Sequence record: MN508614.1
Length of the DNA: 64,000 nt
Reading direction: 5' to 3' (one strand)
DNA from: Escherichia phage ES12
Position numbers and translations under genes: made by a program. The notes under the pieces are model-generated. The model was not told where the DNA came from, did no database searches, and saw only the letters and a list, made by a program, of their open reading frames with translations. This document shows, piece by piece, positions 3,750 to 41,814 of this stretch; positions within the stretch are counted from its first letter, which is position 1; each line of letters begins with the position of its first letter.

Positions 3750-4082
3750 TTATTTTACTACTTTCCAATGCTGCATGTCAAGTTTACCAACTTTTTTCAT
3801 CTTCTCAATTAAGCGTTCGGCACGTTGGCGAGCTGTAACATAATACCATTCACCTAATTCATTTTGTTCAATTTTTCCAACGATTACTGTATTCAATTCA
3901 TAAATCCAACCAGTAAAGAAATTATGAACTTGAATTGTAAAGGTGAAATCTGTTCCCATACCTTCTGTTGTTTCTACTTCAATAATATCACCTTCAACTG
4001 CCATTAAGAACCACATAGTTTCATCATATTTACCATTGAAGCATTTAGTTTTAACTGCAGCGTTCAGATTAATCGTTTTCAT
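3750..4082 (-). CDS. hypothetical protein, 110 aa
   Basis: ORF track; ATG start. Confidence 0.55.
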   Translation of the reverse strand: MKTINLNAAVKTKCFNGKYDETMWFLMAVEGDIIEVETTEGMGTDFTFTIQVHNFFTGWIYELNTVIVGKIEQNELGEWYYVTARQRAERLIEKMKKVGKLDMQHWKVVK

Positions 4083-4109
4083 TTTATTCTCCTTTGTTTG
4101 TGTAAGATA

Positions 4110-4139
4110 ATACTATCACAAAGGAACCATACTGTAAAC
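4110..4139 (-). promoter_or_regulatory. early promoter (GTTTAC -35, TAGTAT -10)
   Basis: Reverse complement GTTTAC-N18-TAGTAT upstream of ORF 3750..4082. Confidence 0.45.
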
Positions 4140-37490: not shown

Positions 37491-38815
37491 TTGATTTCCT
37501 CTAAATCTTTGGTGTATTCTGTAACTACATCAGTAGTTTTCCAATATTCGTTTTCTTCTTTTTTGGCTTTAGCTTCTTCAGCAAGTTTCTTTGCTTCGTC
37601 GGAAGTCATATGAAAAATATTCATTCCGACTAGTTTATCAACATAAGAAGAATACATCTCAATTTTAGAAAGTTCTTCGGTCAGTTCTTTACGAGTTTTA
37701 CCCTGCACAACAATTTCACCTGAAATTACTTTCTTAATGAAATGTGCCTTGGCAAAAGCTAAACGAAAAGCTGACTCAGTTTCTTTAATTTTATTATCAA
37801 TTCGTTTTTGGACATAAGTTTTACGAACTTCAACGAAGTCTTTGATTAAATCAACTACATTATCGTAAACTTGTAGTTTTCCTTTCTCATTAATAACCGT
37901 AATATTCTGAGAACGACGCTCAATCAACCCGAAGTCTTTCATAATTTTTGCATGGCGTTCTTCTTCGTTATCGCTCAAAGAGTATTCTTTGCGGAATTTA
38001 ACTTTGAAGCCAAAGCCATGCTCACCACAAGCATCATCCCATGTAATGAAGCCTTTATCTTCAAGCGGGTCTAAGATTTTACTCACATAAGTTTCACGAT
38101 CATACTTATATGGAATCTCAGTGATATGCATTTGAGTTCGTGAAGTAAACTTATATGTTCCACGAATTTCATATTGCCCATCAATTTCAACGACTTCACC
38201 ACGAAATTCTGGGAATTCTACCTTCGGTTTAGTTACTTTCTTTCCTTGAAGAGCTTGCAGTACAGCTTTCTTGACAGAAGAAACACTATGAGGAAGAATG
38301 TAAGTTGCATAACCAGTTGCAATACCGGAAACGCCATTAAGAAGAACAGTAGGAATAATAGGCAAATAGAAAGCAGGCGGAATGTGTTCTTTATCTTGAT
38401 GTACCGGAGCATATTCAGTATCTTTATATACGTTATAGAAATTTTTACTTACACGAGCAAAAATATAACGACTTGCTGCTGCCTTTTGGACAGTACGAGA
38501 ACCAAAGTTTCCTTGACCGTCTAACAGAGGAAAGTTATTATTCCAAGTGTTAGCCATCAAAGCACCTGCGTCTTGCGCAGAGTTTTCACCATGATGATAT
38601 CCAAGGTCCGCTACACCGCCTGCGATAGAAGCGAGTTTGTGAAACTTATCTTTATTTCCTCGTGCCAAATCAAGAGCTCGAGCAATAACAAATCGTTGAA
38701 CTGGCTTAAATCCGTCAATCATATTTGGGATAGCACGATTTTCAACCGTGTACATAGCATAAGCCAATGCTTCATTATCAATGATACTTTTTAAATCACG
38801 ATTATTCAGTTGCAT
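37487..38815 (-). CDS. 52: DNA topoisomerase II medium subunit, 442 aa
   Basis: MQLNNRDLKSIIDNEALAYAMYTVENRAIPNMIDGFKPVQRFV... GyrA-like. Confidence 0.95.
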   Translation of the reverse strand: MQLNNRDLKSIIDNEALAYAMYTVENRAIPNMIDGFKPVQRFVIARALDLARGNKDKFHKLASIAGGVADLGYHHGENSAQDAGALMANTWNNNFPLLDGQGNFGSRTVQKAAASRYIFARVSKNFYNVYKDTEYAPVHQDKEHIPPAFYLPIIPTVLLNGVSGIATGYATYILPHSVSSVKKAVLQALQGKKVTKPKVEFPEFRGEVVEIDGQYEIRGTYKFTSRTQMHITEIPYKYDRETYVSKILDPLEDKGFITWDDACGEHGFGFKVKFRKEYSLSDNEEERHAKIMKDFGLIERRSQNITVINEKGKLQVYDNVVDLIKDFVEVRKTYVQKRIDNKIKETESAFRLAFAKAHFIKKVISGEIVVQGKTRKELTEELSKIEMYSSYVDKLVGMNIFHMTSDEAKKLAEEAKAKKEENEYWKTTDVVTEYTKDLEEIK

Positions 38816-38819
38816 AAAT

Positions 38820-38960
38820 TTACCATACTAGTGAATGTAGTGCCATAATAACATCAGAAATGAAAAGCACGACTTGAATTAATCCGAACATTATTCCGTA
38901 ATATAATGCTATCAATAAAATAGCAAGGGCTAATGAATAGCCCAAGATTTTCTTAATCAT
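38820..38960 (-). CDS. small membrane protein, 46 aa
   Basis: Hand-translated MIKKILGYSLALAILLIALYYGIMFGLIQVVLFISDVIMALHSLVW; overlaps ac stop (ATGATTAA). Confidence 0.4.
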   Translation of the reverse strand: MIKKILGYSLALAILLIALYYGIMFGLIQVVLFISDVIMALHSLVW

Positions 38961-39111
38961 TAGTAGATAACAACACAAATGTTAAATATGCACACATACC
39001 CTGAGCTAAAGCTTGCGAAAACACACTGCTGGCATCAATACAGATAGTTAAAACACATGCTACTATCCAACAAATAAATGAAATAACTCCTAATAATTTT
39101 GCAATATTCAT
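38953..39111 (-). CDS. ac: acriflavine-resistance membrane protein, 52 aa
   Basis: Hand-translated MNIAKLLGVISFICWIVACVLTICIDASSVFSQALAQGMCAYLTFVLLSTND; GAGGAAAA RBS; position between stp and 52 as in T4. Confidence 0.6.
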   Translation of the reverse strand: MNIAKLLGVISFICWIVACVLTICIDASSVFSQALAQGMCAYLTFVLLSTND

Positions 39112-39118
39112 ATTTTCC

Positions 39119-39199
39119 TCACTGGCGTCCGAAGACGCCTTTAGTTTTAAGATTATTACGATAGAACTGCATCACGTGTTCGTTGTGGAAATTACTCAT
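39119..39199 (-). CDS. stp: Stp peptide (suppressor of three-prime phosphatase), 26 aa
   Basis: Hand-translated [26 protein letters not shown], the 26-residue T4 Stp as recalled; TAATG overlap with ndd stop. Confidence 0.85.
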
Positions 39200-39657
39200 T
39201 AATATGCCTGCAAAACGAATTTAAAGTTATCAGCCAACATACGGTTCATTTCTTCAAGTGTTTGATACTCGGAATGATGATTACGGGTAAACGCCAAAGC
39301 TAACTGACCTTTACCAAATCCTGTCGTCAGAGGTTTCATCTTAGAAGCAGGCAGATAAAATACTGTGTATACCATATTGTTATTTGCAATAGTACGTGCA
39401 AGCTGAGACCGACGTTGACGAATATGACTTAGAACTGCACTGAATCCTTGCTTAGAACGCTGATTACCTACATAAAATCGTGCAGACACACATGGATTAC
39501 TAAATGGACGACCATCTAATTTACTTACTAAAAAGTAAAATCCAGGTTTAGATAAAATATCTTTATGCGGAGTTCCTAAAAACCACTCACCACCCTTGAT
39601 TGTACCAATAACAGTAGCGCCTGCGTTGTTCAGATCAGTAACAGTCATGTATTTCAT
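39199..39657 (-). CDS. ndd: nucleoid disruption protein, 152 aa
   Basis: From ATG at 39657: [28 protein letters not shown]...; ORF track 5' extension runs through an upstream hairpin and was trimmed. Confidence 0.8.
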
Positions 39658-39715
39658 ATTAATTTCCTCTAAATTATTTTCTACTCCAAGGCCGCATGAA
39701 TACGCGGCCATTAAA

Positions 39716-39931
39716 TTAATCGTCGCAGTCGACGCTCAATTCCCAAAACTCTTCTACAGTATAAGTTTCAGTATCATTTTCAATACAGAAACGTTCATTA
39801 CTGTTATTTGCTAAAGTAGCATTAACTGTCGGTTTCTCGCTAGTGCTCTTAAGAGGTGAAATACGAATTAACTGATCACCGTTATCTAAACAGAAAATTT
39901 CACCAACTTTTACATCTTTAAAACTTTTCAT
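39716..39931 (-). CDS. hypothetical protein, 71 aa
   Basis: ORF track; ATG start. Confidence 0.5.
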
Positions 39932-40046
39932 AATTCACCTCAAGGAGTATAAAATCCAAACGCAGTTGTTGACCATCCCATCCAATATGGAAAATTTGCA
40001 CCAATGTAAAACATAAGAATATAAAACCAACCGCTCAGCAAATTCA

Positions 40047-40244
40047 TCATTTTACACCATTCCAAATTGTTTCAACCACAGATTTTAAACCATTTTGATG
40101 AATATCAATTCCGACTACTGCCATCAAATAGATTCCAACTACAACTGAACCTAAGGCAAAAATCAGCATGAAAATGAATAAAGCCGGAAAAATATTATCG
40201 AAAAACCATTCAATAAATGTAAAAGCACTGCGTTTACGCTTCAT
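40047..40244 (-). CDS. small membrane protein, ~65 aa
   Basis: ORF track start TTG; trimmed to ATG at 40244 preceded by GAGGAAAA. Confidence 0.45.
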   Translation of the reverse strand: MKRKRSAFTFIEWFFDNIFPALFIFMLIFALGSVVVGIYLMAVVGIDIHQNGLKSVVETIWNGVK

Positions 40245-40251
40245 ATTTTCC

Positions 40252-40365
40252 TCACATAAATCCAAAGTAAACGTTTAATACATCAATCATTAAAACGATT
40301 GGGAATATACTCAAAACTATTAGTATTATAACTACATTCCATATAGCTTTAATAATCTTTTTCAT
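40252..40365 (-). CDS. small membrane protein, 37 aa
   Basis: ATG at 40365 preceded by GGAGG; MKKIIKAIWNVVIILIVLSIFPIVLMIDVLNVYFGFM. Confidence 0.4.
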   Translation of the reverse strand: MKKIIKAIWNVVIILIVLSIFPIVLMIDVLNVYFGFM

Positions 40366-40393
40366 TTTCTGTTCCTCCGTAGTTGATAGGGTA

Positions 40394-40423
40394 ATAGTAC
40401 CACGGAAGAACAGTCTTGTAAAC
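40394..40423 (-). promoter_or_regulatory. early promoter (GTTTAC -35, TACTAT -10)
   Basis: Reverse complement GTTTAC-N18-TACTAT. Confidence 0.45.
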
Positions 40424-40608
40424 AACTTTTTTAAAAATATTCGTAATAAATGTGAATACCAACTACTACCGCTGAAACCTGTGCAACCCACCACGCACAA
40501 GCAATAAGTACAGAATTCAAAATTTTCATAATAACCTCATTACAAAAGTAAATGTTAAACAAATTACTGGAATACTAATTAACCAAACAAAACACCACCA
40601 TAATGAAC

Positions 40609-40872
40609 TCATAGTTCAATCTCAACGATTTCCAAGTGTTTTTGTTTTATTGCCTTTTTAACACAATCATGGACTAAATATGACCATGAATCATTATATT
40701 CTCCATTAACTAATCGTTGGAGATCTTCACGTGATGATAAGTAAGGTTGATCTGATTCCCATTTTGATAAAAATACTGCAGTAAAAATATCTCCTTCATC
40801 TGTAGTTGAAGTCGTAAATGCAATAAATTCACCGGTAATTTTATGTTTAACGTAAAAGAACTTAAATTTCAT
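40609..40872 (-). CDS. hypothetical protein, 87 aa
   Basis: ORF track; ATG start; leader identical to that of the 37-aa ORF. Confidence 0.5.
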   Translation of the reverse strand: MKFKFFYVKHKITGEFIAFTTSTTDEGDIFTAVFLSKWESDQPYLSSREDLQRLVNGEYNDSWSYLVHDCVKKAIKQKHLEIVEIEL

Positions 40873-40900
40873 TTTCTGTTCCTCCGTAGTTGATAGTTGT

Positions 40901-40930
40901 ATAGTACCACGGTCCTTGTGATATGTAAAC
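40901..40930 (-). promoter_or_regulatory. early promoter (GTTTAC -35, TACTAT -10)
   Basis: Reverse complement GTTTAC-N18-TACTAT. Confidence 0.45.
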
Positions 40931-40947
40931 TGTTTTATGAAAATTTT

Positions 40948-41505
40948 TTAAATGGAAAGATACCATCCGCTGTAGTTGCTTTTTCTTACAACTTTACGAA
41001 GGTCTTCTCTGTCACCGATGAACTTCGGAGTGTACTGGATGACACCTGGATGAATTTCTTTAGTGTTGAATATAATTATACAGTCGGCGACTTGATAATT
41101 TAGAATGGGCCCTAGATTTATTCCAGAACCATATGGATACTCTCCGCTGCATCCTGTTGTTACAGAAATCCAACGTGAGTCAGTTTGATGTGTCTTAACT
41201 TCTACGCGAAGCCCACAGTATTTTGGATGTGCTAAAACATCCCATGCATATGTGTACGGATCATCGACATCTTCTTGGCCTTTATTGACATATCCGCTTA
41301 GCCAATCTGCCACAAAAAACTCTGCGTACACAGCGATACGGCATCTTTCGATAACTTCTGCCTTATCCTGATTTGGGTTTTGTTTTAAAGAGTATCTTGC
41401 AGTATCAGCAATTTTGACCTTCATTTCACTAGTCAAGTCACTGTTCGATAGGGTAAATGACGGAATCTGAAATAGTCTCTGCAAACCCGGATTCGTTTTC
41501 TGCAT
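40948..41505 (-). CDS. denB: endonuclease IV, 185 aa
   Basis: 185-aa ORF MQKTNPGLQRLFQIPSFTLSNSDL... between ndd cluster and rIIB as in T4. Confidence 0.8.
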   Translation of the reverse strand: MQKTNPGLQRLFQIPSFTLSNSDLTSEMKVKIADTARYSLKQNPNQDKAEVIERCRIAVYAEFFVADWLSGYVNKGQEDVDDPYTYAWDVLAHPKYCGLRVEVKTHQTDSRWISVTTGCSGEYPYGSGINLGPILNYQVADCIIIFNTKEIHPGVIQYTPKFIGDREDLRKVVRKSNYSGWYLSI

Positions 41506-41560
41506 TTAAACTTTCCTTTTATGTCTGAATCACTGGTATTCATATAATAAATCATAATTT

Positions 41561-41587
41561 CTCTTAAAACAAAAGGGCCGAAGCCCT
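41561..41587 (-). terminator. hairpin terminator downstream of rIIB-distal ORF
   Basis: agggc-cgaa-gccct hairpin with U-rich tract on minus strand; identical hairpin repeated at ~41797. Confidence 0.45.
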
Positions 41588-41591
41588 TATT

Positions 41592-41786
41592 TTATTTGAA
41601 TTGTGCAATTCTTTTCTCTAGACATTCAGCATAAGATTTCATTGAGATGAACTGTGAAAGTAGCAGTTCTTGCTCAACTGCACTAACTGTTAGAAACTTT
41701 GCGCTTTCTAAAAATTTGCTCAGTGCATTAATTTTGAGCATTAATTGATCGTATTCTTCTTTTACTCGTGCTTGATAACCTAACAT
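41592..41786 (-). CDS. hypothetical protein, 64 aa
   Basis: ORF track; ATG start. Confidence 0.5.
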   Translation of the reverse strand: MLGYQARVKEEYDQLMLKINALSKFLESAKFLTVSAVEQELLLSQFISMKSYAECLEKRIAQFK

Positions 41787-41814
41787 AATTTTCCTTAGTT
41801 AAGGGCCGAAGCCC

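Follow-up and report, generated by a model that had tools for sequence, protein, structure and literature searches.

Between the genes ndd and denB of Escherichia phage ES12 (sequence record MN508614.1), of which a 64,000-nucleotide stretch was analysed (the window; positions are counted from its first letter), five ATG-initiated open reading frames (ORFs) of 36, 65, 37, 32 and 28 aa follow one another head to tail at 39940-40612, all on the minus strand. We conclude that these ORFs are genuine genes, and that they are the orthologues of ndd.2, ndd.2a plus ndd.3, ndd.4, ndd.5 and ndd.6 of phage T4. A preliminary description, made from the sequence alone, had reported a cluster of very small hydrophobic ORFs at this place and had quoted three of the peptides; all three are encoded as written, and the 65-aa and 32-aa ORFs complete the set. 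Of 39932-40612, 88% is taken up by the five ORFs. The features, with predicted transmembrane (TM) helices where these define the entry, are as follows.

39940..40050, minus: ndd.2 orthologue, 36 aa (35 aa from a second ATG at 40047); quoted peptide MMNLLSGW...FYTP
40047..40244, minus: 65-aa gene, DUF7248; T4 "ndd.3" and "ndd.2a" in one frame
40252..40365, minus: ndd.4 orthologue, 37 aa; quoted peptide MKKIIKAIW...GFM
40431..40529, minus: ndd.5 orthologue, 32 aa, one predicted TM helix; start overlaps the ndd.6 stop
40526..40612, minus: ndd.6 orthologue, 28 aa, one predicted TM helix; quoted peptide MSSLWWCF...RLL
40948-41505, minus: denB

The window is Tequatrovirus DNA. Over 39100-41600 it matches the unannotated record of Escherichia phage ES26 (MN508618.1) at 100% identity and hundreds of Tequatrovirus genomes at 94-97%; the flanking genes were identified as ndd and denB from their 98% nucleotide identity with annotated T4. 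Read along the minus strand, the order is denB, an 87-aa ORF, ndd.6, ndd.5, ndd.4, the 65-aa ORF, ndd.2, ndd.1, ndd, stp, ac and 52.1. In alignments, the position and order of the genes between ndd and denB on the early strand match annotated T4, T6, ECO4 and others. The likeness to T4 ndd.2-ndd.6 extends to the proteins (97-100% identical) and to the cassette that precedes ndd.4; T4 differs in having a split 65-aa gene, an ndd.4 annotated at 42 aa and no 87-aa gene.

The preliminary description had also credited the ORFs with ribosome-binding sites, and we find GGAGG or GAGG at a proper distance for some genes and stop/start overlaps for others. GGAGG stands 8 nt 5′ of the ATG of ndd.4, and GAGG stands 5 nt upstream of the starts of ndd.5 and of the 65-aa ORF, in the latter case beginning within the ndd.4 stop codon (TGAGG). 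In ndd.6, ndd.5 and ndd.2 the start codon shares bases with the stop of the gene before it (ATGA or TGATG), an arrangement that, as far as sequence can tell, is that of translational coupling. The peptides are hydrophobic, as had been claimed: the best 19-residue Kyte-Doolittle (KD) window scores 2.2-3.1 in four of them and 1.2 in ndd.2.

A cluster of this kind is not readily produced by chance. In 2000 dinucleotide-preserving shuffles of the 681 bases, scored for ATG ORFs of at least 28 aa, the mean was 1.6 such ORFs; five hydrophobic ORFs appeared in 0.05% of the shuffles, and four ORFs with KD of at least 2.0 in none of the 2000. The opposite strand holds a single ATG ORF of at least 28 aa, which is not hydrophobic. 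A loose scan of the 64 kb for small hydrophobic ORFs preceded by a Shine-Dalgarno sequence (SD) listed 12, three of them within this 0.6-kb stretch; two more ORFs of the cluster are absent from that list because they are translationally coupled.

The cluster is already known, and its discovery value is accordingly small: the genes were named decades ago as ndd.2-ndd.6 and are present in family databases, all of them with PHROG families and two with Pfam families. The T4 reference (NC_000866, T4p270-T4p275) lists ndd.2 (36 aa), ndd.2a (40 aa), ndd.3 (26 aa), ndd.4 (42 aa), ndd.5 (32 aa) and ndd.6 (28 aa). Whole-peptide PHROG matches were obtained for ndd.2 (phrog_4135, 1.7e-24), the 65-aa protein (phrog_2401, 2.1e-29), ndd.4 (phrog_3098, 5.2e-21), ndd.5 (phrog_5011, 3.6e-26) and ndd.6 (phrog_8851, 1.6e-17); ndd.3 is a PHROG singleton. 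The 65-aa protein matches PF23906 (DUF7248) over residues 6-63 (E 3.6e-19, 68.9 bits against a cut-off of 27). The 37-aa ndd.4 peptide found no match in our local Pfam copy, and all of its close homologues in a large protein database, queried with the 37 aa plus five upstream residues, carry a precomputed PF26889. The ndd.4 and 65-aa families are both narrow, with 7-8 clusters each in that database. NCBIfam and PADLOC profiles found nothing in any of the seven small proteins of the region.

To call the cluster an under-annotated micro-protein island, as the preliminary description did, is thus right for this record and for automatic annotations only; for the field it does not stand, given the T4 names, the PHROGs, DUF7248 and PF26889, and a published example of cassette exchange at this very place (see below). 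Automatic annotation of T4-like genomes regularly loses one to four of these genes: T2 (AP018813) has ndd.4 alone annotated, and in two re-sequenced genomes of T4 both ndd.4 and ndd.6 went unannotated.

Three gene boundaries deserve correction or comment. Immediately behind the start codon of the 65-aa gene, a single G is missing from the T4 reference (ATGAA-CGT vs ATGAAGCGT), so that the frame of the gene is split there into "ndd.3" (26 aa) and "ndd.2a" (40 aa), at 4049-4129 and 3933-4055 of our extract of NC_000866 (L001). The frame is intact in three other T4 assemblies (OZ209023, OL964745, OZ209057) and in approximately 490 relatives; the intact gene in other assemblies of T4 itself points to a reference error or a stock-specific frameshift, and the entries ndd.2a and ndd.3 should be merged. 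The 42-aa annotation of T4 ndd.4 begins at an ATG created inside the SD by a T4-specific C>T change, and the conserved start predicts a product of 37 aa. The first ATG of ndd.2 is ATA in 5/22 of the sequences compared below, which makes initiation at the second Met the more probable. We also observed that gp120 of Shigella phage Sf25 (62 aa) carries both PF26889 and PF23906 and, from these domains, looks like ndd.4 and the 65-aa gene naturally fused.

Conservation of the reading frames

The comparison of frames drew on 22 sequences from Tequatrovirus. Besides the window these were T2, T6, three assemblies of T4, eleven other isolates and five contigs from IMG/VR. A scan of IMG/VR with Ndd had given only five loci, and 16 further Tequatrovirus GenBank regions were added to T4 and ECO4. 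In addition, tblastn was run across 50,697 phage records, and a record was counted if at least 80% of the frame was matched. Counts were obtained for four genes; low-complexity masking removed the ndd.5 query. The masking accounts for the absence of ndd.5 matches, since a DNA search finds the gene, which is present in 22/22 of the sampled sequences. The outcome for each gene was as follows.

ndd.4: intact in 22/22, no exceptions; 595 records
ndd.5: intact in 22/22, no exceptions; query masked
ndd.6: intact in 20/22, with one terminal frameshift and one in-frame extra Trp codon; 493 records
65-aa gene: intact in 20/22, with the T4 reference frameshift and a premature stop in T2; 493 records
ndd.2: intact in 19/22, with frameshifts in ECO4 and EC121 and an N-terminal deletion in ECP52; 509 records

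Conservation of each frame across the T-even phages, which the preliminary description had proposed as a check, is thus borne out, and the pattern of substitution within the frames also speaks for protein coding. The Nei-Gojobori ratio of nonsynonymous to synonymous differences (pN/pS) in the annotated frame is 0.15 for ndd.2, 0.07 for the 65-aa gene, 0.10 for ndd.5 and 0.12 for ndd.6, and in shifted frames it is mostly about 1 or more (one shifted frame of ndd.6 gives 0.39). Variable sites concentrate at third codon positions, with 2/6/23 at the three positions of the 65-aa gene and 1/1/9 in ndd.5; the latter differs at up to 9 of 99 nucleotides across the 22 sequences with no more than two amino-acid changes, both conservative in kind. 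We take all five genes to be under purifying selection, which shows that they are not annotation noise.

On the tblastn counts ndd.4 is the most widely conserved member, its 595 records including approximately 100 at 60-80% identity in other genera. Between ES26 and RZ the ndd.4 proteins are 64% identical, with pS 0.71 and pN 0.23, and synonymous sites are near saturation. Within Tequatrovirus the gene shows almost no synonymous variation: 2 of its 38 third positions are variable vs 68 of 208 in the four neighbouring genes (Fisher P = 3e-4), third-position diversity is 0.005 vs 0.08-0.12 in the neighbouring genes, and the conservative polymorphisms I5V, I16V and V32A occur in nearly all combinations. 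The coding region folds into a 73-nt hairpin in Tequatrovirus (z -2.3). RNA structure was considered as the cause of the scarcity and is not established as such; homologues in four other genera have z near 0.

Outside the genus the genes travel in smaller sets. Dhakavirus JS10 and Gaprivervirus RZ have a module made up of an 87-aa homologue, a 29-aa ndd.6 homologue with a W-C...W...IPVIC pattern, a promoter cassette and an ndd.4 homologue (consensus MSSKxWCLIW..CIPVICVCF... for ndd.6 and MK.LLKAIWNMFVL..VLSIFPIVFMID... for ndd.4), and they lack ndd.5, the 65-aa gene and ndd.2. In Pectobacterium phage PM2, ndd.4 is the sole annotated gene between denB and ndd. With ndd.2, tblastn also reaches approximately 25 Klebsiella phages at about 44% identity; in one Klebsiella phage, P545, an ndd.2 homologue (MNAVLGW...VPYWLGWS) adjoins ndd, and an ndd.4-like peptide beside ndd can be recognised by motif only. 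The motifs kept between genera are IPVIC in ndd.6, KAIWN...SIFPIV.MID in ndd.4 and PYW[ML]GWS in ndd.2. Such conserved motifs and flanks suggest that the peptides make specific contacts rather than contributing bulk hydrophobicity.

Promoter cassettes and the ndd.4 hairpin

Two early promoters serve the cluster, the second of them with a hairpin embedded in it.

40901..40929, minus: early sigma-70-type promoter, TTTACA-N17-TACTAT, heading the 87-aa ORF, ndd.6 and ndd.5
40366..40430, minus: PeSL-type cassette between ndd.5 and ndd.4; -35 at 40422-40417, -10 at 40399-40394
40369-40413, minus: 15-bp hairpin; 5′ arm between -35 and -10, 3′ arm holding the ndd.4 SD GGAGG
2578-2649 of L022 and 2627-2698 of L023: further hairpin sites

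A promoter scan gave TTTACA-N17-TACTAT for the ndd.4 promoter (40422-40394) as well, and both promoters fit the PST/T4 PeSL consensus TTTACW-N17-TAYWAT (PMC4122927). Both lie inside a 46-nt repeat, D1, whose copies are 91% identical and which also supplies the leader and GGAGG; the 34-nt core of the repeat has two copies in the window, and shuffles never produced one. PeSL cassettes as published combine an early promoter, a stem-loop between -35 and -10 or over -10, an SD and ATG 3′ to it, and small variable ORFs (PMC2839356, PMC4122927). All of this is found at ndd.4: the promoter type, the placement of the stem-loop with SD and ATG on its 3′ side, and flanking ORFs that are swapped, inserted or deleted. 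At the cassette before the 87-aa gene the stem-loop is weak (7-bp stem, z -0.9). The shuffling of genes through PeSLs is itself published, with T4 ndd.4/ndd.5 as the cassette-exchange example of Figure 6A (PMC4122927).

What sets the ndd.4 cassette apart from these PeSLs is that the 3′ arm of its stem is the SD itself, and that this pairing is rebuilt in two further genera. The hairpin folds at -22.7 kcal/mol (z -4.9), and its stem persists in 22/22 Tequatrovirus sequences, where the base changes within it are of wobble or Watson-Crick type; in JS10 (z -5.1) and RZ (z -6.1) it is rebuilt from other bases, again pairing with the SD. RNA started at the ndd.4 promoter would lack the 5′ arm, so that the SD would be masked only on RNA reading through from upstream. 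The arrangement thus points to a hairpin that would mask translation on read-through RNA, as judged from base pairing; the PeSL papers give the stem-loop only a terminator or attenuator role (PMC2839356, PMC4122927).

Predicted membrane topology and possible functions

Four of the peptides can be given a predicted topology by the positive-inside rule. In ndd.4, K2, K3 and K6 precede a single TM helix that carries a proline midway (SIFPIV); together with D28 they lead us to infer an N-in/C-out topology. In the 65-aa protein an N-terminal KRKR is joined by an interfacial helix, a single long TM helix and, at the C terminus, an amphipathic helix; the AlphaFold2 model places helices at 5-17, 19-51 and 53-64 (pLDDT 80); it is predicted to be single-pass and N-in/C-out. 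Conservation in this protein lies in the juxtamembrane FIEWFFDNIFP and the C-terminal NGLKSV.ET.WNG.K, and the core of the helix is variable. Since K2 is N-terminal and E30 C-terminal, ndd.5 should likewise be N-in/C-out; ndd.6, a protein identical to that of T4, should be N-out/C-in because R26 is its sole charged residue. The ndd.2 peptide (33% aromatic, with the motif PYWMGWS) has no charged residue at all and for that reason may sit at the membrane interface.

The labels "outer membrane protein" and "periplasmic protein" that T4 entries carry are unsupported predictions; they have spread to hundreds of genomes and should go. Residues 8-11 of ndd.5 read L-I-A-C, a lipobox-like sequence conserved in 22/22 sequences that is probably the source of the "outer membrane protein" label. 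A lipobox Cys is expected after a signal peptide of about 15-25 residues. We considered and rejected both ndd.5 and ndd.6, the two that bear the "outer membrane protein" label, as lipoproteins: ndd.5 has its Cys too early, at residue 11, and is otherwise TM helix, and ndd.6 has no lipobox.

AcrZ, MgrB, MgtS, KdpF and CydX are bacterial single-TM peptides that act by binding a larger membrane protein. Regulators of the AcrZ/MgrB/MgtS type share with the ndd peptides a length of approximately 30-50 aa and one TM helix, and we adopt them as a working model; the two groups differ in that no sequence relationship is seen (NCBIfam, Pfam) and in that the ndd peptides are phage-encoded and confined to infection. 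Closer to hand, Stp (26 aa), Ac (about 51 aa) and gp52.1 (46 aa) are neighbouring tiny immediate-early non-essential products, of which Ac and 52.1 are, like the ndd peptides, single hydrophobic helices; Stp differs in being soluble with a defined target, and Ac in having an acridine-sensitivity phenotype.

We consider it fairly probable that the five genes encode early single-pass inner-membrane peptides that serve as accessory, condition-dependent modulators of host membrane proteins or of lipid synthesis. Host RNA polymerase would transcribe the cluster immediately after infection from the two sigma-70-type early cassettes, in one unit comprising the 87-aa ORF, ndd.6 and ndd.5 and a second comprising ndd.4, the 65-aa gene, ndd.2 and ndd.1 and probably running into ndd; translation within each unit would be chained through the overlapping stop and start codons. 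Each product would insert into the host inner membrane in a single pass, with ndd.4, ndd.5 and the 65-aa protein N-in and ndd.6 C-in, and would there bind a particular host inner-membrane protein or alter the lipid machinery. As accessory factors in host take-over, the peptides may pay off only under some conditions.

Data from T4 agree with this proposal in part. The transcripts of ndd.2-ndd.6 fall in the class "early" (PMC9697503 Table S2). The viable T4 clone T4_583L (MZ375356.1) lacks approximately 340 bp (T4 166507-166846), a deletion that spans the 3′ part of ndd.5, ndd.4, ndd.3 and the 5′ part of ndd.2a, and its viability is independent evidence that these genes are dispensable. A larger deletion, saDelta9, which removes 52.1 through denB, lowers the yield to 50% of wild type and abolishes the post-infection stimulation of phospholipid synthesis, especially that of phosphatidylglycerol; its authors left the responsible genes unidentified and noted several predicted membrane proteins among the products of the region (PMC6071114). 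The peptides described here would be the foremost candidates for the 52-rIIB genes through which T4 stimulates phosphatidylglycerol synthesis in the host, and the cluster in this way narrows the search in a published question, namely which 52-rIIB genes reprogram host lipid synthesis. A literature search for functional studies of ndd.2-ndd.6 found none.

Several observations weigh against the proposal. The lipid phenotype may not involve the peptides, because 52.1, ac, stp, ndd, ndd.1 and denB are lost in the same 3.4-kb deletion. In a CRISPRi-ART screen every knock-down from ndd.1 to ndd.6 was scored "Not Fit" (PMC11879866); the knock-downs show no phenotype, a result that also fits an accessory role. 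The ndd.2-ndd.6 peptides were undetected in the T4 proteome (Class_P = NA), in which Ndd and Ndd.1 were detected, the latter as early (PMC9697503); this absence is a weak negative, since tiny hydrophobic peptides are poor tryptic targets. A literature search for T4 ribosome profiling found none. Finally, ndd.2 and the 65-aa gene are broken in a few natural phages (ECO4, EC121, T2), and the within-genus pN/pS of ndd.4 is about 2, on only six variable sites.

A more specific version of the same proposal is doubtful, and we offer it tentatively. Each peptide might inhibit or activate a different host inner-membrane machine, and at least one might be the T4 factor that switches phospholipid synthesis to phosphatidylglycerol; the prime suspect would be Ndd.4, present in at least five T4-like genera, whose synthesis could be gated by its hairpin so that only promoter-proximal transcripts were translated.

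Among the alternatives, the one that survives best is that the peptides act in counter-defence or exclusion, neutralising membrane-acting defences of the host or of prophages, or blocking superinfecting phages, and that they would matter only on matching hosts. This is the reading put forward in the preliminary description, which had named host take-over and superinfection exclusion as frequent roles of small phage membrane peptides. We regard this as possible and still on the unlikely side. The neighbourhood is rich in such functions, namely stp (PrrC), ac, ndd and rIIA/rIIB vs RexAB (10.1101/2025.11.20.689424); the locus is hyperplastic, with cassettes swapped between related phages (PMC4122927), and the adjacent 87-aa gene, with three divergent alleles or none, has a pattern typical of an arms race. 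The lack of a fitness effect on a laboratory strain (PMC11879866) would also be expected. The peptides themselves, however, are under strong purifying rather than diversifying selection and are nearly invariant in approximately 500 phages of many hosts; they resemble neither T4 Imm nor Sp, nor any named entry of PHROGs, Pfam, NCBIfam or PADLOC, and no conditional phenotype has been reported.

It is distinctly improbable that the peptides are membrane toxins, resembling type I toxins or small holins, that depolarise or permeabilise the inner membrane early and so aid host shut-down. They do resemble Hok, TisB, Ibs and Ldr in length and hydrophobicity, and differ from them in that neither an antisense RNA partner nor a match to a known toxin family was detected; Rfam, searched up to an E of 1, gave no family on either strand of 38800-41800. 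Early depolarisation would deprive the phage of energy, and the conserved motifs and soluble flanks favour specific binding over bulk membrane damage, even though many small immediate-early genes of T4 are lethal to the host when cloned (PMC6071114).

That the ORFs are non-functional by-products of T-rich sequence between mobile promoter cassettes, as their dispensability, their absence from the proteome and the occasional natural frameshifts and one premature stop might suggest, is a reading effectively excluded by the selection data, with a pN/pS of 0.07-0.15 and a third-position excess in exactly the annotated frames, and it fits neither the retention of the frames in approximately 500 genomes, nor the homologues at 44-61% identity in other genera, nor the failure of shuffled sequence to yield such a cluster.

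Neighbouring genes

The small hydrophobic peptides are bracketed by soluble products and followed by a second hairpin.

40609..40872, minus: 87-aa soluble protein, phrog_2390, not hydrophobic; stop overlaps the ndd.6 start (ATGA)
39716..39931, minus: ndd.1, 71 aa, acidic, soluble, not a membrane peptide; last gene of its unit before ndd
39690..39709, minus: 8-bp hairpin, GC-rich (GGCCGCGU/GCGCGGCC type), in the ndd.1-ndd spacer; not followed by a U-run

The 87-aa gene is a variable cassette, present as three alleles approximately 70% identical to each other, or absent. T4 is among the phages without it and has an 8-codon remnant, MKIAEIEL, that overlaps the ndd.6 start; T2, LYE-01, G50 and G28 have a further ORF of 68 aa. 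The pN/pS of ndd.1 is 0.08. The hairpin between ndd.1 and ndd might serve in RNA processing or stability and not as a terminator; the segment 39660-39735 folds at -22.2 kcal/mol (z -2.9), and the hairpin is kept in T4 and ECO4.

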